A stretch of 50,962 nt of DNA from assembly GCA_035304085.1 (NCBI GenBank), contig DATGQT010000028.1:1-50962 (forward strand), in the 5' to 3' direction. The stretch comes from Rubricoccaceae bacterium (GTDB lineage: Bacteria > Bacteroidota > Rhodothermia > Rhodothermales > Rubricoccaceae). The notes under the pieces were generated by a model. That model searched no databases. It was not told the DNA's origin and worked only from the letters and a program-made list of their open reading frames with translations. Shown one piece after another: positions 8,031 to 50,232 of the stretch. Every line of letters starts with the position of its first letter. The stretch's first letter is position 1. The position numbers and the translations under genes were made by a program.

Positions 8031-8350
8031 GCGCCCGCGGCCCCGCGCGCGGCGGGGCAAAAAATCCGCACCGGCGCGGGGCCGCGGAGCAACTCCGCCG
8101 CCCCGCGCGTGTCTAGACGCGACGCCGACGCGGCGTCCGGGCCCCCGCTCGCGTCGCCTGCGGCGCCCGTTGCGTTGACAATCTGGGGAGGAGTAGGGTT
8201 ATTCGCCCCGTTCTCTCGGCGGCGCCGTGGTCCCCTTCGGGGTTGCCCCTCTCCCCCTCCTGCCCGTCCCGCCGTCCGCATCCCAGGCCCTTCCCCGAAG
8301 GCGCCGTCACCCCCGCTCACCCCGCTTACGCACCCCCAAGAGGTCGTCTT

Positions 8351-9133
8351 ATGAAGCTCTACGCGCTGCTGCTGCTGCAGGAGGCCGCCGCCGCCGACGG
8401 CGGCTTTACCAACGAGCTGGTCCGCCGCTTCAACGAGGGCGGGCAGCTCTGGATGACGCCGATCCTCATCTGCCTCATCATCGGGCTCGCCATCGCCTTC
8501 GAGCGCATCATCTCGCTCAACCGCTCCGACATCAACACGCGGAAGTTCATGAACCGCGTGAAGGAGGCGCTCGAAAGCGGGGGGATCTCGGCGGCCGAGG
8601 AGGTCTGCGCCAACACGCGCGGCCCGGCGGCCTCGGTGGTGCAGGCGGGGCTCCTCCGCTACGACGAGGGGATGGACGCCGTCGAGAAGGCGGTGGTCTC
8701 CTACGGCTCGATCGAGATGAGCTTCCTCGAGCGCGGGCTCGTCTGGCTCAGCCTCTTCATCTCGATCGCCCCCATGCTCGGGTTCCTCGGCACCGTCATC
8801 GGGATGGTGCAGGCGTTCGACGCCATCGAGGCGGCCGGCGACATCTCGCCCTCGCTCGTGGCCGGCGGCATCAAGGTGGCCCTGCTCACGACGGTGTTCG
8901 GCCTCATCGTGGCGATGATCCTCCAGGTCTTCTACAACTACTGCGTCTCGAAGATCGACCGGATCACGGCGGACATGGAGGAGGCGAGCGTGGAGCTCAT
9001 CGACGCGCTGGCGATGATGAACATGGGGCGGCCCGTCCGCGCCGTGGGCGCCGGCGCCCGCACGGCCTCGCTGCCCTCGGCCTCGTCCGAGGTCGGGCGC
9101 GGGGACGACCTCACGAAGACGGACCTCAGCTGA
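8351..9133 (+). CDS. exbB: MotA/TolQ/ExbB proton-channel protein
   Basis: Start at ATG 8351 (MKLYALLLL...). The typical ExbB C-terminal TM pair is IAPMLGFLGTVIGMVQAF...GGIKVALLTTVFGLIVA. Confidence 0.88.
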   Translation: MKLYALLLLQEAAAADGGFTNELVRRFNEGGQLWMTPILICLIIGLAIAFERIISLNRSDINTRKFMNRVKEALESGGISAAEEVCANTRGPAASVVQAGLLRYDEGMDAVEKAVVSYGSIEMSFLERGLVWLSLFISIAPMLGFLGTVIGMVQAFDAIEAAGDISPSLVAGGIKVALLTTVFGLIVAMILQVFYNYCVSKIDRITADMEEASVELIDALAMMNMGRPVRAVGAGARTASLPSASSEVGRGDDLTKTDLS

Positions 9134-12251: not shown

Positions 12252-13160
12252 ATGGCCGCGGGGCCGCCGACGGCGCGCGACCGCCTCGGGGCGGTGCCGC
12301 TGCACGTGTGGGCGGTCCTGGCCGTGGGCCTCGCCACGTTCGGCTCGTCGGCCATCCTGGTGCGCTACGCTTCGGAGGCGCCGGCGCTGGCCCTCGCCGT
12401 GTGGCGGACGACCTTCGCGGCCGTGCTCGTGGCGCCGGTGGCGCTGGCGAAGGCGGGGCCGCAGCTCCGCCGCCTGCCGCCGCGCGACCTCGCGCTCATC
12501 GGGGCGGCGGGCGTGCTCCTCGGCCTCCACTTCATCGGCTACATCGAGTCGCTCTACCACACGAGCGTGGCGAGCGCCTCGGTGCTCGTCACGACGAGCC
12601 CGCTGTTCATCGCCGCCCTCGGGTACGCCTTCCTCCGCGAGCGCCTCGCGCTGCGGACCGTCCTCGCCATCGCGGCGGCCGTCGCCGGCGCCGCTCTCAT
12701 CGGGCTGGCCGACGCGCAGGCGGGGGCGTTCCCGCGCGCGGGCTTCGGCAACGCGCTCGCCCTCCTGGCGGCGCTACTGTTCTCGGTCTACATCCTCATC
12801 GGGCGGGCGGTGCGGCAGCGGATGGGCTTCCTCCCCTACCTCCTCCCGCTCTACGCCGTCGCGGCGGCGACGTGCGTGGGGGCGGCGCTGCTGCGGGGGG
12901 TGCCGCTGGCGCAGCCGTGGCCGGTCCTCGGGCTGTGCCTGCTGATGGCGCTCGGCCCGCAGCTCCTCGGGCACGGCTCGTTCAACTACGCCGTGCGCTA
13001 CCTCCCGGCGGCGCTCCTCGGGCTCCTCTCCCTCATCGAGCCCGTCGTGGCCTCGTTCCTGGCCCTCGTCCTCTTCGGCGAGCGCCCGCCGCTGCTGGCG
13101 GTGGCGGGGATGGCCGTCGTGCTCCTCGCCATCGCCGCCGTCTTCGCGCGACGAACGTGA
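12252..13160 (+). CDS. EamA/DMT-family transporter
   Basis: Ten-TM protein made of two EamA-like halves. Confidence 0.8.
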   Translation: MAAGPPTARDRLGAVPLHVWAVLAVGLATFGSSAILVRYASEAPALALAVWRTTFAAVLVAPVALAKAGPQLRRLPPRDLALIGAAGVLLGLHFIGYIESLYHTSVASASVLVTTSPLFIAALGYAFLRERLALRTVLAIAAAVAGAALIGLADAQAGAFPRAGFGNALALLAALLFSVYILIGRAVRQRMGFLPYLLPLYAVAAATCVGAALLRGVPLAQPWPVLGLCLLMALGPQLLGHGSFNYAVRYLPAALLGLLSLIEPVVASFLALVLFGERPPLLAVAGMAVVLLAIAAVFARRT

Positions 13161-13222
13161 TTACGTGACGCGTGATTACGTGAACGCTCCCTCTCACGTA
13201 ATCACACCCTTCACGTAATCAC
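13157..13222. repeat. Word-hairpin element E7 / bidirectional terminator (12-mer GTGATTACGTGA, two direct plus two inverted copies)
   Basis: GTGATTACGTGA lies at 13157-13168 and 13172-13183. Its exact complement TCACGTAATCAC lies at 13194-13205 and 13211-13222. The element sits between the convergent stop codons at 13160 and 13225. Confidence 0.85.
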
Positions 13223-13224
13223 GT

Positions 13225-14289
13225 TCACCGCCAGCCGGGAAGGAAGCGCCGCACGGGGAGGTCCGAGAAGTGCCGCCGGCCGCGGGCGAAGTAGTCGAGG
13301 ACGATGGCGCCGCGGTAGGGGGGGAGGAGGGCCAGCGCGTCGTCGGGAGGCCGGGCGTCGGCGTAGCGGGGGAAGAGGGCGCGGGCGTCGGCGTAGGCGC
13401 GGCGGATGGCGGCGGCCTCGGCGGGGCCGCCGGCGGCGCGGGCGCGCGCCCACGCGAGGGCGTCGAGGGCGCGGCGGGCGCGGGCCACGCGGCGCCACTC
13501 GCGCGGGGGGAGGTTCTTGTAGAGCATGACGAGGCTGTTGCGGAAGTTGTAGTACGCCTTCCGCGGGTCGCCCTGCGGCAGCGACGCGCCGCCGAGGTGG
13601 TACGCCACGCTCTGCGGCGCCACGCGCACGCGCCAGCCGGCCCGCCACAGCCGCCAGCACAGGTCCACCTCCTCCATGTGCATCCCGAACGCCTCGTCGA
13701 AGCCGCCGACGGCCTCGAACGCCTCGCGGCGCACGACGAGGCAGGCGCCGGAGGCCCAGAAGACGTCGCGGGCGTCGTCGTACTGCCCCCGGTCCTCCTC
13801 CAGCGTGAAGAACAGCCGGCCGCGCGTGAACGGGTAGCCGTAGGCGTCGAGGAAGCCGCCCGCGGCGCCGGCGTACTCGAACCGCGCGCGGTCGCCGTGC
13901 TGGAGGAGCTTGGGCTGGACGGCCGCCGCGTCGGGGATCGCCTCCAGCGTCGCCACGAGCGGGCGGAGCCACCCCGGCGGCACCTCGACGTCGTTGTTGA
14001 GGAAGACGAGGTGGCGGCCCGTGGCGTGGGGCACGGCCGCGTTGTTGCCCCGCGCGAACAGCCAGTTCTCGGGGTGGCGCACGACGACGACCCCGGGGTG
14101 CGCCGCCGCCAGCCAGTCGGCCGTCCCGTCCGTCGAGGCGTTGTCGGCCACGACGACCTCGAGGTCGGGGTAGTCGGTCGCGAGGACGGACGGGAGGAAC
14201 CGCTCCAGCAGCGCGCGCCCGTTCCACGTCACGATGACGACGGAGACGCGGGGGGTGCCTGAGGAGAGGCGCGGGAGGGGGACGAGCAC
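13225..14289 (-). CDS. Family 2 glycosyltransferase
   Basis: VSVVIVTWNG...ATDYPDLEVVVADNASTDGT plus the DxD-like NNDVEV and a later EEVDLCWR motif. Confidence 0.88.
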   Translation of the reverse strand: MLVPLPRLSSGTPRVSVVIVTWNGRALLERFLPSVLATDYPDLEVVVADNASTDGTADWLAAAHPGVVVVRHPENWLFARGNNAAVPHATGRHLVFLNNDVEVPPGWLRPLVATLEAIPDAAAVQPKLLQHGDRARFEYAGAAGGFLDAYGYPFTRGRLFFTLEEDRGQYDDARDVFWASGACLVVRREAFEAVGGFDEAFGMHMEEVDLCWRLWRAGWRVRVAPQSVAYHLGGASLPQGDPRKAYYNFRNSLVMLYKNLPPREWRRVARARRALDALAWARARAAGGPAEAAAIRRAYADARALFPRYADARPPDDALALLPPYRGAIVLDYFARGRRHFSDLPVRRFLPGWR

Positions 14290-15172: not shown

Positions 15173-15230
15173 ATAAAAAAGGCGCCGGCGCGGCCTGTAA
15201 GACCCCACCACGAGTCCAGGCCGCGCCGGC
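15173..15230 (-). terminator. Intrinsic terminator (minus strand)
   Basis: The 14-bp GC stem GCCGGCGCGGCCTG (15184-15197) / CAGGCCGCGCCGGC (15217-15230) is followed on the minus strand by GCCTTTTTTAT. Confidence 0.6.
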
Positions 15231-15390
15231 TTTCCCACCACCAGCGTGGGCTCGTGCCCGCTGGTTCTGTAGAGATCTCGTCTCCCTGCGGGGGTAACCG
15301 GTGACCCCCCTCTGGAGACGACGCCCCTATAGACACGGGTGACCGGCGAGATCTAACTCCTCCGGCCAACTTTTTTTTCGGACCGCCCCT
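15231..15390 (-). ncRNA. Candidate structured RNA or 5' leader upstream of that terminator (class unknown)
   Basis: Nested perfect helices: GAGATCTCG/CGAGATCTC encloses CGTCTCC/GGAGACG, which encloses GGGGGT..ACCCCC. There is also a CCAGC-GGGC-ACGA-GCCC-GCTGG hairpin. The 376-bp gap has no credible ORF. Strand is inferred only from the terminator. Confidence 0.35.
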
Positions 15391-22636: not shown

Positions 22637-24415
22637 TCAGCGGCCGGAGCCGAGCGCGCTCGTGTCGAACGCGGCGAGGGCCACCTCGTGCGCGAACGTC
22701 TCCCCGGTGACCTGGAGCGTGTACGTGTCCGAGGGGAGCCCCTCGCCGAAGACCTCGAACGCCTCGGCCGTCCCGGCGTCGAGCGTCCCGTCGAAGACGG
22801 TCTTGACGCGGCGGCCGTCGCCGTCGACGACGTCGAGGCGGATCTGCTGCCCCTCGGCCACGGTCACGGCCACGCGGAGCGTGCCGCCGCGCTCACCCGG
22901 GTAGGGCTGCGAGACGCGGAAGTTCTCGGGCGCGGCGACGACGGCCTCGGCGGCGGCGCTCACCTGGATCCGCCCGTCGGCGCCCAGCTGGACGAGGCGG
23001 AAGGCGTGGCGGCCGGGGCTGAGCCCCTCGACGTGGTACTCCGGCGCGGCCGTGGCCGGGAGCGTGGCTACGGTGAGGAAGGGGCCGCCCTCGTGGCTGC
23101 GCTGGAGGGTGAGGGGCTCGCCGGAGTTCCGCTCCACCACCCACGTCACGTCCGCCGCCCCCTCCTCGACGGTGACGTCGAAGCGGGAGAGGTTGAGCGA
23201 CGTCGTGGCCGTGGGGCGGACGACGAACAGCCCGCCCTCGATCCCGCTGACGACGATGGACCCGCTCGCGAAGTAGGGGTAGACGCTCCACGCGCCGTTG
23301 AACTGGGCGTCGTCGGTCTCGGGGTAGATGTCGAAGAAGGCGACCTGCCGGATCTGGCCGGCCTCGATCCCGCTGATGTCGAGGACGCGGAGGCCGGAGG
23401 CGTAGTTGGCCTGGTAGACGCGGTCGCCGAGGACGTAGAGGTTGTGGTCGGCGCTGCCGACGGGGGCCTCGAAGATCGTGAGGAGCTCGGGGCTGTCGAG
23501 GTCCTCGAGGTCGAAGGCCATCGTGCGCGTGCGCTCGGAGAACCCCTGGATCTCGTCGAGCTCGTCGTCGGCGAGGAAGTAGCGGTGGTCCTCGGTGAAC
23601 CACCCCTGGTGGGTGTACCCCGGCGTGGGGTAGGTGCCCTGGGCGATCTGGACGGGGTTCGCCTTGTCCGTCACGTCCACGATGGTGATGGTGTCCTCGT
23701 TGGAGCCGACGCAGATCTCGCGGCCCTGGTAGTCGGGGTCGGGGCCGCGGTAGATCACGCACTGGGCGTCGTGCGAGTAGCCGTCCTCGTCGAAGCACCC
23801 GGCGAACTGGGGGTTCAGCGGCTCCCGGATGTCGATCATGTAGAGGCCGCCGGCGCACTCCTGCGCGCCGATGGGGTAGGCGAACCCGGACTCCTCGTTG
23901 ATGGCGATGTTGTGGGCGCTGCCGAGGGGGGTCTCGTCGGGGCCGGTGTACGTGACGTCGGCCTCGAACGTGCGGGCGGGGTCGTGGTCGAGGCCGCGGA
24001 GGCGGGTGAGGTCGAACACCTGCATCCCGTGGGCCGGCGCCTCGCTGACGACGAAGGCGTGGTCGCGGTAGACCTTGATGTCGCGCCAGATCGAGGGCTC
24101 GGTGGCGGTGGGGAGCTTCCCGAGGTTGATCGGGTGGGCGGGGTCGGTGACGTCGACGAACCCGGTGCCGTCGTTGAGCCCGACGAGGGCGTACTCGCGG
24201 CCGGTCTCGGGGTCGGTCCACCCCCAGATGTCGTTGCCGGAGCCGGAGCCGAAGTCCTCGAGCGAGACGTGGCTGATGAGGTCCATGCCGTCGCAGGCGT
24301 ACGCGCCGGCGTGGCCGTCGGTGCAGGGGAGGGGCTGGGCCGAGGCGGCGCTGGCGAGGCCGAGGGCCAGCACGGCGGCGCCGAGGGCCAGCCCGGAGGC
24401 GGGGCGTGTGGTCAT
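22637..24415 (-). CDS. Choice-of-anchor-B / LVIVD-like beta-propeller protein, paralog A (extra Ig-like domain plus a T9SS-CTD-like end)
   Basis: Start at ATG 24415 with a signal peptide. Family hallmarks are PCTDGHAGAYACDGMDL, NDIWGWTDPETGREYALVG and WRDIKVY. It also has SAHN, YSHDAQC, YTHQGWFTED and DHNLY. The family name comes from memory of the motif pattern. Confidence 0.75.
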   Translation of the reverse strand: MTTRPASGLALGAAVLALGLASAASAQPLPCTDGHAGAYACDGMDLISHVSLEDFGSGSGNDIWGWTDPETGREYALVGLNDGTGFVDVTDPAHPINLGKLPTATEPSIWRDIKVYRDHAFVVSEAPAHGMQVFDLTRLRGLDHDPARTFEADVTYTGPDETPLGSAHNIAINEESGFAYPIGAQECAGGLYMIDIREPLNPQFAGCFDEDGYSHDAQCVIYRGPDPDYQGREICVGSNEDTITIVDVTDKANPVQIAQGTYPTPGYTHQGWFTEDHRYFLADDELDEIQGFSERTRTMAFDLEDLDSPELLTIFEAPVGSADHNLYVLGDRVYQANYASGLRVLDISGIEAGQIRQVAFFDIYPETDDAQFNGAWSVYPYFASGSIVVSGIEGGLFVVRPTATTSLNLSRFDVTVEEGAADVTWVVERNSGEPLTLQRSHEGGPFLTVATLPATAAPEYHVEGLSPGRHAFRLVQLGADGRIQVSAAAEAVVAAPENFRVSQPYPGERGGTLRVAVTVAEGQQIRLDVVDGDGRRVKTVFDGTLDAGTAEAFEVFGEGLPSDTYTLQVTGETFAHEVALAAFDTSALGSGR

Positions 24416-24566
24416 GGTATGACGGACGAGTAGGGCCGCGGTGGGGGCCGGGTGGAGGGGGCGGCGAGCGCCGGGGCCGATCCAACGGCCGGGCCGGCGC
24501 CGCTGTTGCGTGGTCCTGGCGAGAGAGCCCGCGTGCGGACCCCGGCCAGCGACGTTCGAGCGGCGG

Positions 24567-26072
24567 CTAGTGTACGAGCGAGAGGCGGCGGGTTGCGGTG
24601 AAGTCCGGGCCCGTGACGCGGACGAGGTAGAGCCCGGCGGGGAGGTCGGCCCCGTCCACCGCCAGCACCAGCGGCGCCGACGGCGCGGCCGGCCCCTCGT
24701 AGAGGAGGGCGACGCGGCGGCCACGGAGGTCGAGCACCTCGGCGACGACCTCGACCGGCTCCGGCACCGTGAGCGTGAGCGTGCTCCGGCCGTCGGCCGG
24801 GTTCGGCACCGGCGCGCTGAGGACGGTGTGGGCCTGCGGGGCCGACGGCTCGGCGGCCGAGGGGAGGAGGTCCGTCTGTAGCACGAACAGCCCGTTGTCG
24901 CGGTCGTTGGCGATGATGGTCCCGCTCGCGAAGAACGGGTAGTTGCTCCACTGCCCGTCGTACGACTCCCCGTTGCCCTGGGGGTACGTGTCGAAGCTGC
25001 CCACCTCGACGAGCGTGCCGTCGTCGATGCCGGAGAGGTCGAGGATGCGGAGGCCGCCCTCGTAGTTCGAGAGGAAGGCGTGGTTGCCGCGGATGTAGAG
25101 GTTGTGGTCGGTGGTCTCGATGGGACCGAAGTAAGTGAATGCGAACTCGGGGTTGTCGAGGTCCTCCACGTTGAAGATGAGCGTCCGCGTCGTCGGGGAG
25201 ACGGAGTCGTCGAGCTCGTCGTCGACGAGGAAGTAGCGGAAGTCCTCGGTGAACCAGCCCTGGTGGGTGTACCAGGGCTCCGGGTAGAACCCCCGGCTGA
25301 TGGGCTCGGGGTTCGCCTTGTCCTCCACGTCCACGATCACGATGTGGTTCTCGTTCGAGCCGACGCAGATCTCCTTCCCCTGGTGGTCGGGGTCCGGCCC
25401 GGCGTAGGTGACGCACTGGGCGTCGTGGGAGTACCCGTCGTCCGGGTAGCAGCCGGCTTCGACGGGGTTCAGCGGGTCCCGGACGTCCACGATGTAGAGG
25501 CCGCCCGAGCACTGGAACGAGCCGACGACGTAGGCGAACCCACTCTCGGTGTCGATGGCGACGTTGTGGGCGCTGCCGAACCCGGTGAACCGGGCGTCGT
25601 GGGTGAACGTGACCGGCGGGCTCGCCACGTCGCGGAGCCGCGTGAGGTCGAAGACCTGGAGGCCGTGGCTGCCGGCGTTGTCGGCGACGACGAAGGCGTG
25701 GTCGGCGTAGACCTTGATGTCGCGCCAGGTGGAGGCGTCGGTGGCGGTGGGGAGCTTGCCGAGGTAGACCGGCGCCGTGGGCTCGGTCACGTCCACGAAC
25801 GCGGTGCCGTTGGTGAGGCCGACGAGGGCGTATTCCCGCCCGGTCTGGGGATCGGTCCACCCCCAGATGTCGTTGCCGCGGGAGGGGACGACGGGGCCGA
25901 AGGTCGAGAGCGGGAGGTTGGCCAGGAGGTCCACGCCCTCGCACGGGTAGTTGCCCGCGAAGCCCCCCTCGCAGGGGGTCTGTGCCCGCGCGGGGACGGC
26001 GGTGAAGACGCAGAGGGCGAGCGCCGCGAGGAAGGCGGCGCCGCTGAAGGCCGGGAGAGGGCGGGAGGGCAT
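24567..26072 (-). CDS. Choice-of-anchor-B / LVIVD-like beta-propeller protein, paralog B, with a T9SS CTD
   Basis: Start at ATG 26072 with a signal peptide. It has the same motif set as paralog A. The C-terminus is PVPNPADGRSTLTL...LPAGLYLVRV...RRLSLVH. Confidence 0.78.
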   Translation of the reverse strand: MPSRPLPAFSGAAFLAALALCVFTAVPARAQTPCEGGFAGNYPCEGVDLLANLPLSTFGPVVPSRGNDIWGWTDPQTGREYALVGLTNGTAFVDVTEPTAPVYLGKLPTATDASTWRDIKVYADHAFVVADNAGSHGLQVFDLTRLRDVASPPVTFTHDARFTGFGSAHNVAIDTESGFAYVVGSFQCSGGLYIVDVRDPLNPVEAGCYPDDGYSHDAQCVTYAGPDPDHQGKEICVGSNENHIVIVDVEDKANPEPISRGFYPEPWYTHQGWFTEDFRYFLVDDELDDSVSPTTRTLIFNVEDLDNPEFAFTYFGPIETTDHNLYIRGNHAFLSNYEGGLRILDLSGIDDGTLVEVGSFDTYPQGNGESYDGQWSNYPFFASGTIIANDRDNGLFVLQTDLLPSAAEPSAPQAHTVLSAPVPNPADGRSTLTLTVPEPVEVVAEVLDLRGRRVALLYEGPAAPSAPLVLAVDGADLPAGLYLVRVTGPDFTATRRLSLVH

Positions 26073-26089
26073 CGGAGCCGAGGGCGGGG

Positions 26090-27613
26090 TCAGTGGACGA
26101 GGGCGGCGCGGCGGGTGGCGGTGAAGTCCTCGCCGACGACGCGGACGAGGTAGAGGCCGGCTGGGAGCGCCGTCGCATCGAGGATCAGAGTTAGGGGGGC
26201 GCCGGCGGCGACGGGGCCGTCGTGGAGGACGGCGACGCGGCGGCCGGCCACGTCGAGCACCTCGGCCGTGACCGCCTGCGTCCGCGCGACCGAGAGCCGG
26301 AGGGTGATCCTCGAACGGAACGGGTTGGGCACCGGGGCGCTCAGGGCGAAGCCGGCGTCGCCGGGCGCCTCCGGCTCCGCCGCCGTCGTCGGCAGGTTCG
26401 GCCGCAGGACGAACAGGCCGTAGTCCGTGTCGTTGGCGACGACGGTGCCGCTCGGGAAGAACGGGTAGTTGCTCCACTGCCCCATCGTCCCGCTCGCGTC
26501 GGTGTCCCAGTACGTGTCGAAGTAGGCGACCTCGGTGACGAGGTCGTCGTCGATGCCGGAGAGGTCGAGGATGCGGAGGCCGGTGGTGTAGTTGGAGAGG
26601 TAGGCGTAGTGGCCGCGGATGTAGAGGTTGTGGTCCGACGACGGGAGCTCGCTGAAGTAGAAGAAGTCGAACTCGGGGTCGTCGAGGTCGGTGAGGTCGA
26701 AGACGATGGTGCGGGTGTTCGACGTGAGCCCGGTGATCTCGTCGAGCTCGTCGTCGACGAGGAAGTAGCGCTGGTCCTCGGTGAACCACCCCTGGTGGGT
26801 GTAGGCGGGATTCGGGTAGAACCCCCGGCTGATGAGGACGGGGTTCGCCTTGTCCGTCACGTCGGTGAGGGTGAGGGTGTCCTCGTTCGAGGAGACGCAG
26901 ACCTGTCGGCCCTGGTAGTCGGGGTCGGGGCCGCGGTAGACCACGCACTGCGTGTCGTGGGTGTAGCCGTCCTCACCGAAGCAGCCGGCCTGCGTGGGGT
27001 TCAGCGGGTCCCGGATGTCCACGATGTAGAGCCCGCCCTCGCATTCGCCGGAGCCGACGGCGTAGGCGAACCCGCTCTCGGTATCGATGGCGATGTTGTG
27101 GGCGCTGCCGAGGGGGGCGTCGTCGGGGCCGGTGAAGTGGGCGTCGGCCTCGAACGTGACCGGCGGGCTCGCCACATCGAGGAGCCGCGTGAGGTCGAAC
27201 ACCTGCATCCCGTGCTCGGAGGCCTCGCTGACGACGAAGGCGTAGTGACCGTACGTCTTGATGTCGCGCCAGAACGAGGACTCGGTGGCGGTGGGGAGCT
27301 TCCCGAGGTAGACGGGGTTCACGGGGTCGGTGACCTCGACGAAGGCGGTGCCGTCGAGGAGGCCGACGAGGGCGAACTCCCGCCCGCTGTCGGGGTCGGT
27401 CCAGCCCCAGATGTCGTTGCCGTAGAACGTGCCGAACGTGCCGTGCGGGAGGTGCGCGTAGAGGTCCACGCTCCCACAGGGGAAGTTGTTGAAGGATGTG
27501 CCGGGGTTGCCGTCCTCGTCGGCGACGCCGCTCTGGCAGGTGACGAGGCCCTGGGCGCGGGGAGTCGCAGCGAGGGCGAGGAGGGCGAACACAACGGCGA
27601 AGGCGGCGCGCAT
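26090..27613 (-). CDS. Choice-of-anchor-B / LVIVD-like beta-propeller protein, paralog C, with a T9SS CTD
   Basis: Start at ATG 27613 with a signal peptide. The N-terminus is CQSGVADEDGNPGTSFNNFPCGSVDL. The C-terminus is PVPNPFRSRITLRL...LPAGLYLVRV...RRAALVH. It lies 17 nt from paralog B. Confidence 0.78.
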   Translation of the reverse strand: MRAAFAVVFALLALAATPRAQGLVTCQSGVADEDGNPGTSFNNFPCGSVDLYAHLPHGTFGTFYGNDIWGWTDPDSGREFALVGLLDGTAFVEVTDPVNPVYLGKLPTATESSFWRDIKTYGHYAFVVSEASEHGMQVFDLTRLLDVASPPVTFEADAHFTGPDDAPLGSAHNIAIDTESGFAYAVGSGECEGGLYIVDIRDPLNPTQAGCFGEDGYTHDTQCVVYRGPDPDYQGRQVCVSSNEDTLTLTDVTDKANPVLISRGFYPNPAYTHQGWFTEDQRYFLVDDELDEITGLTSNTRTIVFDLTDLDDPEFDFFYFSELPSSDHNLYIRGHYAYLSNYTTGLRILDLSGIDDDLVTEVAYFDTYWDTDASGTMGQWSNYPFFPSGTVVANDTDYGLFVLRPNLPTTAAEPEAPGDAGFALSAPVPNPFRSRITLRLSVARTQAVTAEVLDVAGRRVAVLHDGPVAAGAPLTLILDATALPAGLYLVRVVGEDFTATRRAALVH

Positions 27614-27623
27614 GGCGGGGCGA

Positions 27624-29147
27624 TCAGTGGACGAGGGAAGCGCGGCGGGCGGCGGTGAAGTCCTCGCCGACGACGCGGACGAGGTAGAGCCCCGACGGGA
27701 GCGCACGCCCGTCGAGCCGGAGCACGAGCGGGGCGCCGGCCGCGACGGGCGCGTCGTGGAGGACGGCGACGACGCGCCCGGCGGCGTCGAGGGCCTCGGC
27801 GCGGACGCGCTGCGAGCGGGCGACGGTGAGGCGGAGGGTGGCCTCGCCGCGGGACGGGTTGGGCACCGGGGCGCTCAGGGCGAAGCCGGCGTCGCCGGGC
27901 GCCTCGGGCTCCGCCGCCGTCGTCGGCAGGTTCGGCCGCAGGACGAACAGCCCGTTGTTCTGGTCGTTGGCCACGACGGTCCCGCTCGGGAAGAACGGGT
28001 AGTTGCTCCACTGCCCGTCCCACCCCTCGGGCGACTGGCGCGTCGGCTCGCTGTCGAAGTAGGCGGCCTCGGCGAGGGTGCCGTCCTCGATCCCGGAGAG
28101 GTCGAGGATGCGGAGGCCGCCGTCGTAGTTGCTCTGATACGCGTACTGGCCCTTCACGTAGAGGTTGTGGTCGCGGGTCGGGACCTCCCCGAGGTGCGCG
28201 AAGGCGAACTCGGGGTTGTCGAGGTCCGAGACGTCCATGACGAGGGTGCGCGTCCCGCCCGAAGAGGAGTCGAGCTCGTCGTCGGCGAGGATGTAGCGGA
28301 AGTCGTCGGTGAACCAGCTCTGGTGCGCGTAACCGGGGTTGGGGTAGTAGACGCGGCTGATGAGGACGGGGCTCGCCTTGTCCGTCACGTCCACGAACAC
28401 GAAGTGGTCGCCGCTGCCGAACGAGCTGCCCTGGGAGCCGACGCAGATCTGGCGGCCGGCGTAGTCGGCGTCGGGCCCCTCGTAGACGAGGCACTGCGCG
28501 TCGTGGGTGTACCCGTCGGAGCCGAAGCAGCCGGCCTGCGTGGGGTTCAGCGGGTCCCGGACGTCCACGATGTAGAGGCCACCCGAGCACTCGTCGGAGC
28601 CGACGGCGTAGGCGAACCCGCTCTCGGGGTCGACGGCGACGTTGTGGGCGCTGCCGAACCCGGTGAACCGGGCGTCGTGCGTGAACGTGACCGGCGGGCT
28701 CGCCACGTCGAGCAACCGGGTGAGGTCGAAGATCTGGAGGCCGTGGTTGTTCGCCTCGCTGACGACGAAGGCGTGGTCGGCGTACGTCTTGATGTCGCGC
28801 CAGGTCGAACTCGACGTGGCGGTGGGAAGCTTGCCGAGGTAGACGGGGGCGTTGGGGTCGGTGACCTCGACGAAGGCGGTGCCGTTGTCGAGGCCGACGA
28901 GGGCGAACTCCCGCCCGCTCGGGGCGTGGGTCCAACCCCAGATGTCGTTGCCGTAGTTGGTGCCGAACGTGCCGTGCGGGAGGTGCGCGTAGAGGTCGAC
29001 GCTCCCACAGGGGAAGTTGTTGAAGGGCGTGCCGGGGTTGCCGTCCTCGTCGGCGACGCCGCTCTGGCAGGTGACGAGGCCCTGGGCGTGGAGGGCCGGG
29101 GCGAAGACGAGGGCGGCGAAGGCGGCGAGGAGGAACGGCAGGCGCAT
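27624..29147 (-). CDS. Choice-of-anchor-B / LVIVD-like beta-propeller protein, paralog D, with a T9SS CTD
   Basis: Start at ATG 29147 with a signal peptide. It is 507 aa, like paralog C, and shares near-identical DNA patches with C. The C-terminus is ...LPSGLYLVRV...RRASLVH. It lies 10 nt from paralog C. Confidence 0.78.
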   Translation of the reverse strand: MRLPFLLAAFAALVFAPALHAQGLVTCQSGVADEDGNPGTPFNNFPCGSVDLYAHLPHGTFGTNYGNDIWGWTHAPSGREFALVGLDNGTAFVEVTDPNAPVYLGKLPTATSSSTWRDIKTYADHAFVVSEANNHGLQIFDLTRLLDVASPPVTFTHDARFTGFGSAHNVAVDPESGFAYAVGSDECSGGLYIVDVRDPLNPTQAGCFGSDGYTHDAQCLVYEGPDADYAGRQICVGSQGSSFGSGDHFVFVDVTDKASPVLISRVYYPNPGYAHQSWFTDDFRYILADDELDSSSGGTRTLVMDVSDLDNPEFAFAHLGEVPTRDHNLYVKGQYAYQSNYDGGLRILDLSGIEDGTLAEAAYFDSEPTRQSPEGWDGQWSNYPFFPSGTVVANDQNNGLFVLRPNLPTTAAEPEAPGDAGFALSAPVPNPSRGEATLRLTVARSQRVRAEALDAAGRVVAVLHDAPVAAGAPLVLRLDGRALPSGLYLVRVVGEDFTAARRASLVH

Positions 29148-29203: not shown

Positions 29204-29261
29204 AGGCGCGCGTGCGGGGAGAAAAAGTGGACCTGCCGGACCGTCGGCGGCCAGCCCGCCG

Positions 29262-29774
29262 TCACGGCCGCGTCGGGTCTCCGACGGCCTCGAACCGGTT
29301 CCGCTCCCGGTTCTTCCGCACGGCCTCCGGCCGGAACACGCACCCGTTCATCGTCACGTAGACGCCGGGCGGGAGCGTCTGCACGGCCGCCGCCGCGAAG
29401 CCCACGTTGAACTCGGCGTCGGTGGCCTTGAACCGGGCCGGGGTGAGGGAGCCGACGAGGACGACGGTCTTCGAGGGCGCGGGGCCGAGCGCCTCGGCCA
29501 CGGCCTTCGCCGTCTCCACCATCGTGTCGGTGCCGTGGGTGAGGATGACGCGGTCGGCCTCGGCCCTCGCCACGCGCTCGGCGATGAAGGCGCGGTCGGC
29601 GTCGGTGAGGTCGAGGCTGTCCTTCTGCATGAGCGCCTCGACGGCGTACGTGAACGCGACGCCGGCGGCCCGGAGGATCTCGGTGACCTGGGGCTCGCCG
29701 ACCTCGTACTCGCTCCGGGCGTCGAAGTACACCTTGTCGATGGTGCCGCCGGTGGTGAAGATCTGGACGTGCAT
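29262..29774 (-). CDS. Short asparaginase-family protein (N-terminal catalytic domain only)
   Basis: MHVQIFTTGGTIDK (the TGGTI nucleophile motif) and ILTHGTDTMVETA (the HGTDT motif). At 170 aa it lacks the C-terminal domain of type I/II asparaginases. Confidence 0.75.
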   Translation of the reverse strand: MHVQIFTTGGTIDKVYFDARSEYEVGEPQVTEILRAAGVAFTYAVEALMQKDSLDLTDADRAFIAERVARAEADRVILTHGTDTMVETAKAVAEALGPAPSKTVVLVGSLTPARFKATDAEFNVGFAAAAVQTLPPGVYVTMNGCVFRPEAVRKNRERNRFEAVGDPTRP

Positions 29775-29936
29775 CGGTCAGTGGTCCGTGGTCAGTGGTC
29801 CGTGGTCAGTGGTCCGTGGTCAGTGGTCAGTGGTCAGTGGTCAGTGGTCAGTGGTCAGTGGTCAGTGGGGCAAGGACGGGACGGGAGAAGTTCCCCTGTC
29901 TTCTGCCCTCTGTCTTCTGACCCCTGACCCCTGGAC
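29775..29936. repeat. Element E8: 13-unit heptamer tandem array plus conserved core plus pyrimidine word arm
   Basis: 29776-29866 is (GGTCAGT GGTCCGT)x3 then (GGTCAGT)x7. It is followed by GGGGCAAGGACGGGACGGGAGAAGTTCCCCTGTCTTCTGCCCTCTGTCTTCTGACCCCTGACCCCTGGACC. The array ends 1 nt from ATG 29774 of the downstream (minus-strand) gene. Confidence 0.9.
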
Positions 29937-30332
29937 CTACCGGCGCAGGGCCTCGAGGCGGTCCGCGACGAGGCGGTAGAGGGCAGCGGCCTCGTCGGGG
30001 CGGTGGGCGACGGCGGCGAGGCGGGCGGCGACGGAGGCGGAGTCGAGGCCGGTGGTGCGGCGGACGTGGGCGTAGGCGGCGGCGCGGAGGCTATCGGCGT
30101 CCTCGCCGGTGGCGTCGGCGCGGGCGTCGGCGAGGTGGAGGGGGACGAGGGCGTCGGCGAGGAGGCTGTCGGGGGTCACCTCGGGCTCGGCGTCGCCGGG
30201 GCCCCCGCCGCACCCGAGGAGCAGGAGGAAAAGCGCCAGCGCGCAAGCACGGGGGCGTGCAAGCGGGCAGGCGTGCGCTCGTGCGCTCCTGTGCGCCCGC
30301 TCGCTTGCGTGCCCGCTCGCTTGCGCGCTCAT
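29937..30332 (-). CDS. Small lipoprotein of unknown function
   Basis: Lipobox LFLLLLGCGG. The only in-frame start is ATG 30332, which overlaps the upstream stop. The first 30 codons are read from element E15. Confidence 0.55.
   Translation of the reverse strand: MSAQASGHASERAHRSARAHACPLARPRACALALFLLLLGCGGGPGDAEPEVTPDSLLADALVPLHLADARADATGEDADSLRAAAYAHVRRTTGLDSASVAARLAAVAHRPDEAAALYRLVADRLEALRR
30241..30330. repeat. Word-hairpin element E15 (word GCAAGCG), embedded in the 5' end of a CDS
   Basis: GCGCAAGC...GTGCAAGCGGGCAGG (left) is answered by GCCCGCTCGCTTGCGTGCCCGCTCGCTTGCGCGC (right, a direct duplication of GCCCGCTCGCTTGCG). Confidence 0.6.
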
Positions 30333-33047: not shown

Positions 33048-33691
33048 GTCGGAAGGTCCAAGGTCTGAAGGTCGAAGGTCGGTGGACGGGGCTCGGACGT
33101 CCGACCTTCAGACCCGGGACCCGCGACGGCGAAGCGTACCCAGTTCGCGACGATCCGCGGCCCCTCCGTCGTCAGCACGCTCTCGGGGTGGAACTGGACG
33201 CCCTCGACGGGGAAGCGGCGGTGGCGGAGGCCCATGATCGTGCCGTCGTCGGTCCACGCCGAGACCTCCAGCGCCTCCGGCAGCGCGGCCCGGTCGGCCA
33301 CGAGGGAGTGGTAGCGCGTGGCGAGGAAGCCCTGCGCGACGCCCTCGAAGACCCCCCGGCCGTCGTGGCGGACGCGGCTGGTCTTGCCGTGGACGGGCGC
33401 CGGCGCGTGGACGACGCGCCCGCCGTAGACCTCGGCCATCGCCTGGAGGCCGAGGCAGACGCCGAGGACGGGCGTCGTCGGGCCGAGGCGGCGGAGGAGG
33501 GCCTCCGAGATGCCGGCGTCGGCCGGGCGGCCCGGGCCGGGCGAGATGAGGATGCCCGCCGGCGCCATCGCCGCCACGTCCTCGACCGTCACCGCGTCGT
33601 TCCGCACCACCACCACCTCGCCCGCAGCCGCCTCGACGAGGTGGACGAGGGTGTACGTGAACGAGTCGTAGTTGTCGAGGACGAGGATCAT
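33044..33691 (-). CDS. trpG: Anthranilate (or aminodeoxychorismate) synthase glutamine-amidotransferase subunit
   Basis: MILVLDNYDSFTYTLV, nucleophile elbow GVCLGLQ, and the catalytic HPES. The last 25-28 codons (AVAGPGSEGRTSEPRPPTFDLQTLDLPT) are read through element E9. Confidence 0.88.
   Translation of the reverse strand: MILVLDNYDSFTYTLVHLVEAAAGEVVVVRNDAVTVEDVAAMAPAGILISPGPGRPADAGISEALLRRLGPTTPVLGVCLGLQAMAEVYGGRVVHAPAPVHGKTSRVRHDGRGVFEGVAQGFLATRYHSLVADRAALPEALEVSAWTDDGTIMGLRHRRFPVEGVQFHPESVLTTEGPRIVANWVRFAVAGPGSEGRTSEPRPPTFDLQTLDLPT
33048..33121. repeat. Word-hairpin element E9 (word GAAGGTC), inside the trpG 3' end
   Basis: GTCGGAAGGTCCAAGGTCTGAAGGTCGAAGGTCGG is answered by CGGACGTCCGACCTTCAGACCCGGGACC. 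GGTCTGAAGGTCGG pairs with CCGACCTTCAGACC. Confidence 0.75.
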
Positions 33692-35366: not shown

Positions 35367-35462
35367 GGCGGGAGGGGCAGGAGGGACGGCCGGAAGGTCG
35401 CACCGCGAGCGGGTCCGCCGCGTGAAAAAGCCGCCACCCGCGCCTGTTCCCCCGTGCCCGCG

Positions 35463-39681: not shown

Positions 39682-40770
39682 CTAGGCCCGCGCCTCGTCC
39701 GGGGGCGAGGCCTCCTTCCGGTGGGCCTGGCCGTTGGGCGGGAGCGGCGGGGCGAGGTCGGAGCGGCCGGGGGCGGGGCCGGGGTCGTCGGCGCCGGGGA
39801 GGTGGACCGGCTCGTCCGGCCGGGGGCGGGGGCCGCGGCGGTGCTCCCGGGCCGCCGCCGCCCACGAGAACAGGGCCGAGGCGCCGATGAGGCTGGTGAT
39901 CACGCTGAGGGAGACCCACGTCGGCACGTGGACCCACTCGTGGGCGAGCATCTTCGCGCCGATGAAGACGAGGACGAGGCCGAGGCCGTAGTGGAGGTAG
40001 CGCACGCGCTCGATGATCCCTGCGAGCAGGAAGTACAGCGCCCGCAGCCCCACTATCGCCATGATGTTCGACGAGAACGCGAGGAAGGGGTCGGTCGTGA
40101 TGCCGAGGATGGCCGGGATCGAGTCCACCGCGAACACGACGTCCGTCAGCTCGATCATCACGAGGACGAGGAAGAGCGGCGTGACGAGGCGCCTCCCCAT
40201 CCGCTTGATGAAGAACTGCTCGCCGTGGTAGCTCTTCGTGACGGGGAGCACGCGGCGGAGCGTGCGGAGGAGGCGGTTCTGCCCGGGCTCCTCGGCCACC
40301 TCGCTCGTGATCAGCATCCGCATCCCCGTGAGCAGGAGGAACACCCCGAACACGTAGAGCACCCACTCGAACCGGTTGATCAGCGCGACGCCGAGGAAGA
40401 TCATCACCGCGCGCATGACGACGGCGCCGAAGATGCCCCAGAACAGCACGCGGTGCTGGTACTGCGCCGGCACGCCGAAGTACCCGAACAGCACCGCGAT
40501 CACGAACAGGTTGTCGACCGAGAGCGAGACCTCGACGAGGTACCCGGTGAAGAACGTGAGCCCCGCCGTCGCCCCGTACTCCAGCCACACGAACACGTTG
40601 ACGGCGACGGCCGAGAGGATGAAGAACGCCGAGATGCGCGCGGCCTCCCCCCACTCGATCTTGTGCGACTTCCGGTTGAACCAGAGGAGGTCGATCAGGA
40701 GCAGCGTGACGACGTAGGCGACGAAGCCGCCCCACACCAGCCCGGAGACGTCGAGGTGGTCATTCGGCAT
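39682..40770 (-). CDS. TerC-family integral membrane protein
   Basis: YLVEVSLSVDNLFVIAVLF and AVDSIPAILGIT are the two TerC repeat signatures. There is an Arg/Pro-rich C-terminal tail. Confidence 0.88.
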   Translation of the reverse strand: MPNDHLDVSGLVWGGFVAYVVTLLLIDLLWFNRKSHKIEWGEAARISAFFILSAVAVNVFVWLEYGATAGLTFFTGYLVEVSLSVDNLFVIAVLFGYFGVPAQYQHRVLFWGIFGAVVMRAVMIFLGVALINRFEWVLYVFGVFLLLTGMRMLITSEVAEEPGQNRLLRTLRRVLPVTKSYHGEQFFIKRMGRRLVTPLFLVLVMIELTDVVFAVDSIPAILGITTDPFLAFSSNIMAIVGLRALYFLLAGIIERVRYLHYGLGLVLVFIGAKMLAHEWVHVPTWVSLSVITSLIGASALFSWAAAAREHRRGPRPRPDEPVHLPGADDPGPAPGRSDLAPPLPPNGQAHRKEASPPDEARA

Positions 40771-40846
40771 GTGGGGGACGGAGGGGGGATGGGGCAGGCT
40801 GGAATCCGGCCTTGTACGCGCGGAATTGCGGAAGTGCCGGAGGCGG

Positions 40847-41350
40847 TCAGGTTTCGCTGAGGTCGCGGTGGCCGAAGTAGTACAGGCACAGCTTCAGCTT
40901 CTCCGCCTTCAGCGGGCCGAACCCCGGCAGCGCCCGGACGCGCGCCTCGACCTCGGCGCAGGTGCCCTCGCCCCAGAGGTTGGCGGCGCTGCCGCCGTAG
41001 TCGTCGGCGAGGATGCGGGCGAGCGCCTGCGTCCGCGCGGCCATCGTCCCGGTGAAGCGGTGGACGGCCGGGGGCTCCCGGAAGACGGCCAGGAACGCGT
41101 CGGGGTCCATGTCGGCGATCCGCCTCATGTCGAGGTGGCCGAGGCGCCGGCGCAGCTTGAGCGGGCCGACGAACGCCGTCTCGGCCAGCACGCGCTGGTC
41201 GTAGAGGAGGCCGAGGAGGACGGCGTTGGGCTCGTCGCGGAGGAACGCGTCGGCGTCGGGGTCCTTCGTCGCCGTGCCCTCCATCTGGAGGCGGTCTAGC
41301 ATGCGGGCGAGGCCGCCTTCGAGGTGGGCGTAATCGGAAGCGTCGATCAT
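40847..41350 (-). CDS. HhH-GPD-type base-excision DNA repair-like protein
   Basis: Start at ATG 41350. AVLLGLLYDQRV...AVHRF...LPGFGPLKAEKLKLCL matches the small HhH-GPD-type family as I recall it. Confidence 0.65.
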   Translation of the reverse strand: MIDASDYAHLEGGLARMLDRLQMEGTATKDPDADAFLRDEPNAVLLGLLYDQRVLAETAFVGPLKLRRRLGHLDMRRIADMDPDAFLAVFREPPAVHRFTGTMAARTQALARILADDYGGSAANLWGEGTCAEVEARVRALPGFGPLKAEKLKLCLYYFGHRDLSET

Positions 41351-41466
41351 GGTCCGTGGTCCGTGGTCCGTGGTCCGTGGTCCGTGGTCCGTGGTCCGTG
41401 GTCCGTGGGGGAAGGGCGGGGCGGGAGAAGTTCCTCTGACCTCTGCCTTCTGACCCCTGTCTTCTG
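41351..41466. repeat. Element E12: 8-unit heptamer array plus the same conserved core as E8
   Basis: 41351-41406 is (GGTCCGT)x8, starting immediately after the ATG (41350-41348) of the minus-strand gene. It is followed by GGGGGAAGGGCGGGGCGGGAGAAGTTCCTCTGACCTCTGCCTTCTGACCCCTGTCTTCTGTC. Confidence 0.9.
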
Positions 41467-43014
41467 TCAACTGATCTTGCGTCGCCAGCGGGTGCCCTCG
41501 GGCGTGTCCATCACCTCGACGCCGAGGGCGTCGAGCTCGGCGCGGATGGCGTCGGCGCGGGGCCAGTCCCGCGCGGCACGCGCCTCGGCGCGCTGCACGA
41601 GGAGGGCCTCCACCTGCGTCGCCAGCCCGTCCGTCTCGGGCTGCGCCGGTTCTGCGGCGACCTCCTCGTGGCGGACGATGCCGAGGAGGGCGTTGATCCG
41701 GTCGAGGAAGTCGGCGGCGGAGCGGGCGGCGGCGGCGGAGAGGGGCGCCCGGTGGTGCTCTCCGAGTACGGCGCCGACGCCGCGGTAGGCGGCGGCGAGG
41801 GCCTCGGGCGTGTTGAGGTCGTCGCACATCGCCGCGAGGGCGTCGTCGTAGGCCTGCCGGAGCGGCCCGGCCAGGCGGTCCTCGCCCTCGCGACCCGCCG
41901 CAAGCGCCTCCTCGGCCACGCGCGCGGCCTCCTCGATGCGCTGGCGCTGCTTCTGCGCGTCCTTGAGCGCCTTCCGCGTGAAGTTGAACGGCTGGCGGTA
42001 GCTGCCCTGGAGGAGCGCGAGGCGGAGGGCCAGCGGGTCCACGGGCGCGCCCCAGTCGGCCCGCCCGCCCGCCTCCGGCGGCGCCGTCAGGTCGCGGACG
42101 GTGAGGAAGTTGCCGAGCCGCTTGCTCATCTTCTCGCCCTCGACGAGCAGGAAGCGGGTGTGTATCCAGTGGCGGGCGAAGGGCTGCCCGGAGAGGGCCT
42201 CCGCCTGCGCGATCTCGCACTCGTGGTGGGGGAACCGGAGGTCCTCACCACCCCCGTGGAGGTCTATCGTCTCGCCGAGGTACTGCTGCGCCATCACGGA
42301 GCACTCGAGGTGCCAGCCGGGGAAGCCCCAGCCGAAGGGGGAGTGCCACTGCATGAGGTGGCCGGGGTCCTTCTTCCAGAGCGCGAAGTCGCGGGGGTCC
42401 CGCTTCTGCTCGTCCACGACGACGGCGCGCGAGGCGGCGGCGGCGCCGACGTCGAGCTGCTCGGCCTCGGTGTTGCCGGAGAGCTTGCCGTAGTCGGGGA
42501 AGGAGGGGACGTGGAAGTAGACGCCGTCGTCGGTCTCGTAGGCGTGGCCCTTCCGCACGAGCGCCTCGGTGGCGAGGATCTGCTCGCGGACGTGCTCGGT
42601 GGCGCGGGGGCGGACGGTGGGCTCGCGGAGGTTGAGCGCGCGCCAGTCGGCCTCGAGGGCGGCGGTGTAGTGGCGCGCGAGGTCCCACACGTTGGCGAAC
42701 CGCTCGCCCTCCTTGCTCGCCAGCGCCTTCGCCATGCGGTCCTCGCCCGCGGCGTCGGCCACGTCGTCCTCCGTCAGGTGGCCGACGTCGGTGACGTTGG
42801 AGACGTAGCGGACGGCCCACCCCAGCGCCTCGGCCACCCGCACGACGAGGTCGGCCGTGAGGAACGTGCGGAAGTTGCCGATGTGGGCGTAGGAGTAGAC
42901 CGTCGGCCCGCACGAGTAGAACCGGAGGACGGGCGTGCCGTCGGCGGTCCGCTCCGAGGGAACGAGCGGGCGGGTCTGCCGGGTGAGGGAGTCGTAGAGG
43001 AGGAAGTCGGGCAC
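41467..43014 (-). CDS. cysS: Cysteine--tRNA ligase
   Basis: The GTG start at 43014 lies 7 nt after the sufE stop. HIGH-type motif (YAHIGNFR) and KMSKR (EKMSKRLGN). Upstream codons in the track ORF are artefactual. Confidence 0.9.
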
Positions 43015-49958: not shown

Positions 49959-49985
49959 GGCTGCGGGGACGGATCGCGAAAGCGA

Positions 49986-50020
49986 GGAGCCGGTGGGCGT
50001 GCGTTGCGCCCACCGGCTCC
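49986..50020 (+). terminator. Hairpin terminator after the caspase pair
   Basis: Perfect 14-bp stem GGAGCCGGTGGGCG / CGCCCACCGGCTCC with a 7-nt loop. The 3' tail is not U-rich. Confidence 0.5.
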
Positions 50021-50232
50021 GTCGTTCCTGGTCTCCGGCTTGGTGGCCGCTCAGCCGTCGAGCCGCTTGAGGAACTGGACGACGCGGACCGTCTCGCGGA
50101 AGCCGAGCGCGGAGGGGGCGGGTCGTCACGGGCGCCGGGGGGGCGGAAGAGGACTGCCCGAAGTCCACGGCCGGTGCGTACTTTTTAGCACCCCCCGCCG
50201 TTCAGGCCCTCCCCAAGCAGCCCCGCACTCCC

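Follow-up and report, generated by a model that had tools for sequence, protein, structure and literature searches.

The 116-nt spacer at 41351-41466 of contig DATGQT010000028.1 (50,962 nt, hereafter the window) from the Rubricoccaceae bacterium assembly GCA_035304085.1 appears to be one copy, termed element A, of a lineage-specific dispersed intergenic repeat in which a G-rich and a C-rich half surround a short conserved apex. Both halves appear 7-nt periodic, and replication slippage would have lengthened one arm to give a hypermutable array of heptanucleotides, of the same general kind as the STRR and TAACTGA repeats. We propose that this slippage-prone array, carried by a dispersed foldback-like spacer element, acts as an unstructured leader for translation without a Shine-Dalgarno (SD) sequence, a reading whose chances we consider evenly balanced. 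It builds on the observed anatomy of the element, the paralogy of its copies, the polymorphism of the array, the orientation statistics and the absence of the element from relatives; we regard the array as tolerated, and probably useful, as an SD-less leader.

Anatomy of the spacer between cysS and the HhH-GPD-family gene

Element A fills the entire gap between the stop codon of cysS and the ATG of a gene of the HhH-GPD family, both encoded on the minus strand. The cysS product carries the Pfam domains tRNA-synt_1e, DALR_2 and CysS_C; the 167-aa product of the downstream gene (40847-41350, minus strand) gave no Pfam hit and takes the label 'HhH-GPD family' from JGI and NCBI. Read on the plus strand, the spacer consists of (GGTCCGT)x8, a G-rich stretch, the apex and a C/T-rich arm of degenerate heptamers. 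Read as mRNA, the stop codon is followed by five degenerate purine-rich heptamers (GACAGAA, GACAGGG, GTCAGAA, GGCAGAG and GTCAGAG), the apex GAACTTC, the C-rich stretch TCCCGCCCCGCCCTTCCCCC, (ACGGACC)x8 and the AUG. An earlier note on this DNA had placed the array next to ATG 41350 and quoted the 60 nt beyond it; its description of array and boundaries was right, the quoted letters being 41407-41466.

The array (41351-41406; (ACGGACC)x8 on the minus-strand mRNA) occupies leader positions -1 to -56 with 100% period-7 identity, and Tandem Repeats Finder (TRF) called it at 41350-41408 (period 7, 8.4 copies, 100% matches). Next to it lies the G-rich half of the plus strand (GGGGGAAGGGCGGGGCGGGAGAAG, 41407-41430), which forms the C-rich 3′ arm on the minus-strand mRNA and aligns with two further copies of the element, B and C. 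The conserved core or apex, GGGRCGGGAGAAGTTCCYCTG (41418-41438, assigned to neither strand), includes the block CGGGAGAAGTTCC, which is invariant in the alignment of the three loci. The C/T-rich arm (41435-41469, minus strand) is made up of about five degenerate heptamers (TCTGACC, TCTGCCT, TCTGACC, CCTGTCT and TCTGTCA) with a period of 7/14 nt, the last of which overlaps the cysS stop codon (TCA on the plus strand, 41467-41469). The arm units are approximately the complement of the array unit GGTCAG.

The downstream gene's start codon (CAT on the plus strand, 41348-41350; gene on the minus strand) was assigned from the translation and the N-termini of homologues. More than 100 homologues of the protein begin M-x-x-DASDY, and the gene strand of the spacer holds no ATG, GTG or TTG, which together support ATG 41350 as the true start. 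A translated array was rejected, since the homologues lack an array-encoded N-terminal extension. The plus strand of the spacer, which is the template strand of the flanking genes, also carries a G-quadruplex motif (GGGGGAAGGGCGGGGCGGG, 41407-41425) of four G-runs with 1-2-nt loops. As a feature of the family this motif was discarded, because the four G-runs of A have no such counterpart in B (at 29867) or C.

Element A belongs to a dispersed family

Element B has the same layout and strand as A; it begins at the stop codon of a 131-aa open reading frame (ORF) and ends one base short of the ATG that opens an Asparaginase N-terminal-domain gene. Its array of 13 mixed ACTGACC/ACGGACC units (29776-29866, minus strand) ends 1 nt before ATG 29774 (CAT at 29772-29774, with a C at 29775), the corresponding distance at A being 0 nt; on the plus strand the units read GGTCAGT/GGTCCGT, and a TRF-type repeat call scored 13 copies at 93%. 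Core and arm follow at 29867-29939 (minus strand; core 29878-29898) and reach the stop codon of the upstream ORF (CTA, 29937-29939).

Comparing the non-array parts of A and B revealed 50 identical bases among 58 aligned (86%, or 77% when a single gap of exactly 7 nt is counted), in keeping with the shared core at about 80% identity that had been estimated by eye in the earlier note. The Smith-Waterman score of 34 exceeds those of 2000 arm-wise dinucleotide shuffles (14.7 ± 2.9, maximum 28), which marks the resemblance as homology and not as shared low complexity. The core pattern matches the window exactly twice, at A and B, and the best non-self match of A in the whole window is element B; because the pattern was itself derived from these two copies, the shuffles are the fair test. 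The genes at the two loci are unrelated, as had been stated (cysS and the HhH-GPD-family gene at A, the 131-aa ORF and the asparaginase-like gene at B), so the pair is not a segmental duplication.

Searching for the core in reference genomes, one genome each of 185,579 species, returned no match, indicating that the species is not represented there. Three JGI metagenome contigs matched, of which one (L085) carries element B in another strain, while the other two (L083 and L084) represent a third locus, C. The neighbours of locus C are genes for a CDP-alcohol phosphatidyltransferase (CDP-OH_P_transf) and a DUF4783 protein, all on the plus strand. Here a TAG stop codon is followed by CGCC, (GTGGTCC)x3, AAAGGT, the core and the pyrimidine arm, after which some 100 nt that include a T-run lead to the DUF4783 gene; the element is therefore inverted relative to transcription, with its short array adjoining the stop codon. 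A single 14-nt arm unit distinguishes L083 from L084. The fixed orientation claimed at the outset, with the array at the ATG and the arm at the upstream stop, accordingly describes A and B and fails for the family. The alternative of a larger duplicated segment also fell, the core at the third locus lying between other genes.

Querying four metagenome runs with apex and arm yielded 6-8 distinct contigs per run, of similar depth and with 80-95% match. The further contigs have differing right flanks and left parts, and their arrays are (GCGAAGG)n, (GGTCAGA)n or (GGTCCGT)n with another G-rich stretch. These matches suggest that the family holds at least about eight loci in these communities; that all of them reside in one genome is plausible, not proven. 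Copies are about 77-91% alike, differ mostly by whole heptamers and end in inverted GGTCAG / CTGACC repeats. With the third locus, the additional contigs and the element-free spacers of relatives, the proposal in the earlier note of a dispersed family, as opposed to chance low complexity, was borne out.

Gain in one lineage and array length variation

CysS of the window, whose guanine-plus-cytosine (GC) content is about 72%, is 71% identical to that of an uncultured Rhodothermales-like metagenome-assembled genome and 66% identical to that of Roseithermus sacchariphilus; the named relatives of the HhH-GPD-family protein are Rubrivirga and Rubricoccus. The order sufE-cysS-HhH-terC is kept in related lineages, with the HhH protein 80-87% identical. 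Three of the orthologous cysS-HhH spacers are plain, C-rich and free of an array (33 nt in L139, 47 nt in L140 and 50 nt in L133), and the fourth (L134, 171 nt) carries another heptamer, (CGTCCTT)n, directly before the ATG. None of these four spacers has significant similarity to element A, and an origin of A in situ from the ancestral spacer was rejected, as its similarity to the spacer of L140 is not significant (p about 0.06-0.08). To judge from these alignments, element A is a recent, lineage-specific gain at the cysS-HhH spacer. Among three species, another six orthologous spacers likewise show no relation in either sequence or length, and further start-proximal arrays were seen in L003, where (CCGCCTT)n runs into a TTG start, and in L004, where (GAACCCC)n precedes an ATG. 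The comparison indicates that spacers in this clade turn over fast and that arrays with differing units arise repeatedly beside start codons.

The arrays also vary between near-identical strains. The array of element A counts 8 copies both in the window and in L086 (99.87% identical), but 10 in L001 (98.7% identical), and element B has three unit strings in three assemblies, with 13 units in the window and 12 in changed order in L085 (99.74% identical to the window) and L137. Paralogous copies likewise differ mainly by whole 7- or 14-nt units. Short-read assemblies, Logan contigs included, break at the arrays and hence at gene starts; contigs with the asparaginase gene end within the array, where only unit order can be compared between strains. 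The changes in copy number and unit order and the 7-/14-nt indels are the signature of replication slippage, which we infer to be the mutational mechanism.

How the copies spread is a separate question, and ectopic conversion seeded by the shared arrays or a transposition like that of miniature inverted-repeat transposable elements (MITEs) may account for it. One rival explanation makes the whole element a non-autonomous MITE or foldback element with heptamer-array inverted ends, mobilised by a transposase in trans, for which the position between stop and start would reflect tolerated insertions. Such an element would explain why copies with a common non-repetitive core are dispersed among different flanks, why both orientations occur, why the ends are inverted repeats and why the orthologous spacers of relatives lack it; dispersed copies with inverted-repeat ends were indeed found, at three sequenced loci and in the 6-8 contigs per run. 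The degree of divergence among the copies, mostly by whole heptamers, speaks against it, as does the exact stop-to-start fill at two loci, a fit that random insertion would seldom produce. Neither a target-site duplication nor an empty site was seen in strains 98.7-99.9% identical, and none of the contigs in five runs skips the element. The element-free spacers of relatives do not align with it and so delimit neither boundaries nor a target-site duplication. No transposase was found among the Pfam-annotated neighbours, a search that covered 38.6-51 kb of the window with the next 8 kb outside it, and 1-10.7 kb with about 6 kb past the left end. We regard this explanation as unlikely, though deserving of serious thought.

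Strand orientation and predicted start accessibility

The orientation of independent arrays speaks for our slippage-and-leader reading. A sample of (GGTCMGT)x4 matches in 37 IMG/VR contigs (L096-L132), mostly 55-70% GC DNA, contained 33 distinct arrays, in which the ATG of a long ORF lies at most 45 nt downstream on the ACKGACC strand of 15 arrays (14 distinct loci) and on the GGTCMGT strand of 1. The strand beside start codons is thus biased in this independent sample, a broader regularity than the fixed orientation described in the earlier note, from which copy C departs. In about one-third of the IMG/VR arrays, a loop and a complementary array follow to form a heptamer hairpin, some near-perfectly inverted. 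Neighbouring units vary mostly at the first two positions and keep ...AGT (ACT... on the complement). Arrays of (GGTCAGT)n are common in virus-classified contigs of 55-70% GC, where they are often mixed with GATCAGT, AATCAGT, AGTCAGT, GGCCAGT and ACTGATT arrays and where the hairpins of array, loop and complementary array often lie between genes. A scan of viral contigs with (GGGGTTC)x4 was left unused, eight of nine contigs having at most 52% GC and none the stop-to-start architecture.

The same polarity runs through the spacers of the window. On the mRNA, nearly every co-directional spacer reads stop, a 5′ part rich in G or purines, a 3′ part rich in C or pyrimidines and AUG, and it does so for genes on either strand because the reverse complement is again G-rich and then C-rich. 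The spacers are often long imperfect hairpins with arms of about 7-nt periodicity and an always G- or purine-rich 5′ arm, as at 737-855, 1729-1809, 2707-2781, 3745-3839, 4836-4919, 13148-13231, 30238-30329 and 33048-33130. Each has its own unit (GTGAAAA, GAAGGTC, GGGCACT, GGGAGAG, ACACGCA, ACGTGATT), and the hairpins of spacers other than A and B are unrelated in sequence. Leaving A and B out, the lag-7 autocorrelation of the spacers is 0.342 versus 0.300 ± 0.007 for shuffles. For 39 genes, taken from the window and from two related species (L133 and L134), the 25 nt before the start codon are G-poor in 37 cases, and no SD-like run was seen in the leaders.

Folding supports a rule for the strand beside start codons, namely that the G-poor, unstructured strand is the mRNA. 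The minimum free energy of (ACGGACC)8 as RNA is -10.6 kcal/mol versus -27.2 kcal/mol for its complement (GGUCCGU)8, and that of (ACUGACC)13 is -5.3 kcal/mol versus -34.1 kcal/mol for (GGUCAGU)13. All five start-proximal arrays (A, B and three of relatives) have an unstructured sense strand and a strongly folded complement, and the rule applies, beyond this element, to almost every spacer of the genome and its relatives. The predicted cost of opening the region from -18 to +12 averages 10.7 kcal/mol at starts and 17.9 kcal/mol within coding sequence (n = 30), as would suit a mode of initiation governed by accessibility and not by SD pairing.

At element A, the predicted opening cost falls from 16.3 kcal/mol without the array to 6.6-9.2 kcal/mol with two or more copies and is 9.1 kcal/mol at the observed number. 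At element B, it is 16.6-18.6 kcal/mol with 0-3 copies (18.0 kcal/mol without the array), 5.2-5.9 kcal/mol with at least 8 and about 5.2 kcal/mol as observed. The predicted gain in accessibility levels off once A has about 2 copies and B about 8, and the observed numbers lie on the plateau. Transcription at both loci would give a G-poor, start-codon-free and almost unstructured (ACKGACC)n leader beside the AUG, and the array may serve as a passive spacer: by putting distance between the AUG and the region where G-rich and C-rich halves pair, it would leave the AUG accessible. Beyond a few copies, gaining or losing units would be nearly neutral, which would explain the polymorphism between strains.

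That polymorphism, in copy number and unit order at both loci, could also be taken as the mark of a phase-variation switch in which the number of heptamers turns the downstream gene on and off or grades its expression. However, the array lies outside the ORF, so that 7-nt steps cannot shift the frame; the predicted accessibility is flat over 8-10 copies at A and 12-13 at B; the spacers have no promoter-like motif, neither a sigma-70 match nor CTTTTT; and HhH-GPD-family and asparaginase-like genes are not surface or contingency functions. We consider such a switch very improbable.

Several points weigh against the leader proposal itself. Any unstructured sequence would do as a spacer, so accessibility leaves the length and sequence of the heptamer unexplained, and relatives manage with plain C-rich spacers of 33-50 nt, which means that the element is not needed for gene expression. 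Core and arms fold no better than dinucleotide shuffles on either strand (z -1.25 to +1.4); the 'hairpin' of the family is modelled as weak and its structural role is only putative. Two raw-read RNA runs contained no reads, and the Logan contigs, broken at the array, give no transcript boundaries. The residence of locus C and the extra contigs in a single genome is drawn only from their occurrence in the same samples at similar depth, and neither target-site duplication, empty site nor transposase was seen that would speak for a copying mechanism. A strong conserved RNA structure was dropped as the definition of the family, the stability of core and arms being shuffle-like. The arm units CTGACC-N complement GGTCAG and are used in the outer stem of B; the folding energy is no better than that of shuffles.

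Transcription of the elements

No sigma-70 match and no CTTTTT motif was found in the spacers of A and B, so with no promoter-like element there the downstream genes would have to be transcribed by read-through from upstream. Read-through agrees with the poor fold of the sense strand at both loci, which does not surpass that of shuffles (z 0.0 to 0.8). There is no intrinsic terminator-like site in 40700-41700 and no T run in the spacer of locus A, the whole window gave no match to Rfam 15 at the gathering score, and the classical Bacteroidetes motif TAnnTTTG is absent from it.

These results bear on a further rival, that the element is a terminator or attenuator of the upstream gene, or a stem-loop stabilising the 3′ end of its mRNA, to which the array would be incidental. 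Most spacers of the window have strong stem-loops just after stop codons, and STRR hairpins have been suggested to stabilise transcripts (PMC2670836). At locus C, moreover, the element follows the stop codon and precedes a promoter-like region, and the sense strand is the better-folding one (-35.5 kcal/mol, z -1.25), with the T-run region after it. At A and B, by contrast, the fold is shuffle-like, a U-tract is missing and the lack of a promoter motif between element and ATG requires read-through; as a general account, a terminator is improbable. For C alone, the orientation with the better RNA fold, after a stop and before a promoter-bearing spacer, would amount to a terminator-like position. 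A bolder generalisation is that the family forms an undescribed non-autonomous foldback class in high-GC Bacteroidota, with heptamer-array ends, whose orientation yields either an SD-independent leader, with the G-poor array beside the AUG, or a terminator-like hairpin, with a G/U-rich array behind the stop codon. We are doubtful of it; if it were true, spacers would be built and rebuilt by a propagating cassette instead of by point mutation.

The CTTTTT motif occurs five times in the window versus 0.9 expected, always in spacers, which are five of the longer ones: at 15176-15181 (minus), 15370-15375 (plus), 29222-29227 (minus), 35425-35430 (minus) and 50181-50186 (plus). It is also present at about 2464-2472 of L083. 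At least four of the five sites share the strand of the gene that follows and precede its start by about 45-75 nt; around 15176, the fifth site, gene boundaries are uncertain. By its placement, CTTTTT is a candidate promoter element.

Comparison with known repeats

Heptamer repeats beside start codons, STRR and TAACTGA among them, have been known for decades and, to our knowledge, have no accepted function. Like STRR, the elements described here consist of 7-bp intergenic tandem units that are dispersed and variable between strains. An STRR unit can pair with an inverted copy as a hairpin; here the arm units complement the array unit, near-perfect inverted arrays occur in IMG/VR contigs, and the fold energy of core and arms is shuffle-like. 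Differences lie in the Rhodothermales host, the 72% GC, the GGTCMGT unit, the conserved non-repetitive core with its degenerate arm and the position of the array, which adjoins the start codon on the G-poor strand. The STRR1 and STRR3 units of Mazel et al. 1990 are reportedly CCCCAGT and CAACAGT, and their ...CAGT ending would match GGTCAGT. The cyanobacterial STRR form intercistronic hairpins, for instance between hupS and hupL, and are of unknown function, with roles suggested in transcript stability and translational coupling (PMC2670836).

TAACTGA repeats occur in marine Beggiatoaceae, some Cyanobacteria and some Bacteroidetes, a few nt from start codons that lack a ribosome-binding site (MacGregor 2015, PMC4679880). 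The present arrays resemble them in being direct heptamers 0-40 nt upstream of starts, in 'forward' orientation, SD-less and before functionally unrelated genes. The likeness is one of position, forward and start-proximal with no ribosome-binding site, and does not extend to the unit at A: ACTGACC of element B shares ACTGA with TAACTGA and has TGA stops in all three frames, whereas ACGGACC of element A is another unit and stop-free in every frame. The arrays here are also longer (8-13 copies versus mostly 2-6), belong to a composite element, accompany a core in either orientation and lie in high-GC DNA.

For TAACTGA a protein platform has been proposed, and by the same logic (ACKGACC)n could offer sites to a single-strand RNA-binding protein (S1, a cold-shock protein or another) that recruits or blocks ribosomes. 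The bias in orientation and ATG proximity of 15 versus 1 in independent arrays is what such a protein would lead one to expect, as are the retention of ...AGT / ACT... in neighbouring units while other positions vary, the ACTGA common to ACTGACC and TAACTGA (PMC4679880) and the recurrence of differing heptamers right at the ATG when one gene is compared between related species. Yet the units differ wholly by locus and species (ACGGACC, CGTCCTT, CCGCCTT and GAACCCC), which a compositional rule fits better; close relatives express the same gene without an array, and neither a candidate protein nor an RNA partner was identified. We hold the platform to be rather unlikely.

As summarised in PMC4679880, heptanucleotide long simple sequence repeats (LSSR) are in excess in prokaryotes (Mrazek et al. 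2007). In the terms of that summary, the arrays of A and B have in common with LSSR that they are perfect tandem heptamers outside coding sequence, exceed the length expected by chance and are prone to slippage. LSSR are a descriptive class that does not predict the proximity to start codons, the strand rule or the shared core. The general description of heptanucleotide repeats fits A and B, each being a longer-than-chance, non-coding 7-nt array whose copy number varies in unit steps.

Repetitive extragenic palindromic sequences (REP), bacterial interspersed mosaic elements (BIME), Correia elements and other MITE-like palindromes are short, dispersed and intergenic, are found both ways round and in some cases terminate transcription or stabilise mRNA. 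The family resembles them as a short dispersed inverted-repeat element between stop and start. Unlike REP/BIME, it has no conserved GTAG-type head, its copies are far from identical (77-91%) and its arms are tandem heptamers. Membership in REP/BIME was rejected on the divergence of the copies, the missing tetranucleotide head and the unrelated hairpins of other spacers, and no REP-associated tyrosine transposase (RAYT) or other transposase was seen among the annotated neighbours.

Against this background, the case adds a high-GC, SD-less lineage to the start-proximal heptamer repeats and offers a simple strand rule, by which the mRNA strand is the one that cannot fold, together with the quantitative prediction that added copies make the start codon more accessible up to a plateau. 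It also links such arrays to a core-bearing dispersed element gained and lost between closely related species. If confirmed, the leader proposal would explain why arrays build up exactly at translation starts in organisms that initiate without SD pairing, and would mean that the clade renews its intergenic spacers by expanding and copying repeats.

Other features of the window and its relatives

The HhH-terC spacer (40771-40846 in the window, 10508-10581 in L133 and 9471-9539 in L134) contains a conserved block, GGCACTTC...CGCGCGTACAAG, in all three species. It is the only compared spacer with a conserved block and has no Rfam match; the block may have a regulatory or promoter role for the TerC-family gene downstream of it. 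In L134, the cysS-HhH spacer (8796-8966) contains, besides the (CGTCCTT)-type heptamers adjoining the ATG, a GC-rich hairpin and a 24-nt sequence in direct repeat (GTCGTGCTCACGCAGGCGGGCAT x2), and an assembly N-gap at 6483-6586 is flanked by GGCGCTTCGTTTAGG repeats.

Two long spacers of the window, 8031-8350 (320 nt) and 49959-50232 (274 nt), have very strong predicted structure (-156 and -160 kcal/mol, respectively) that includes near-perfect GC-rich hairpins. Four tandem paralogous genes of about 500-700 aa lie at about 22637-29147 on the minus strand, and the copy of the last of them in L085 has 75-82% nucleotide identity to the other three.

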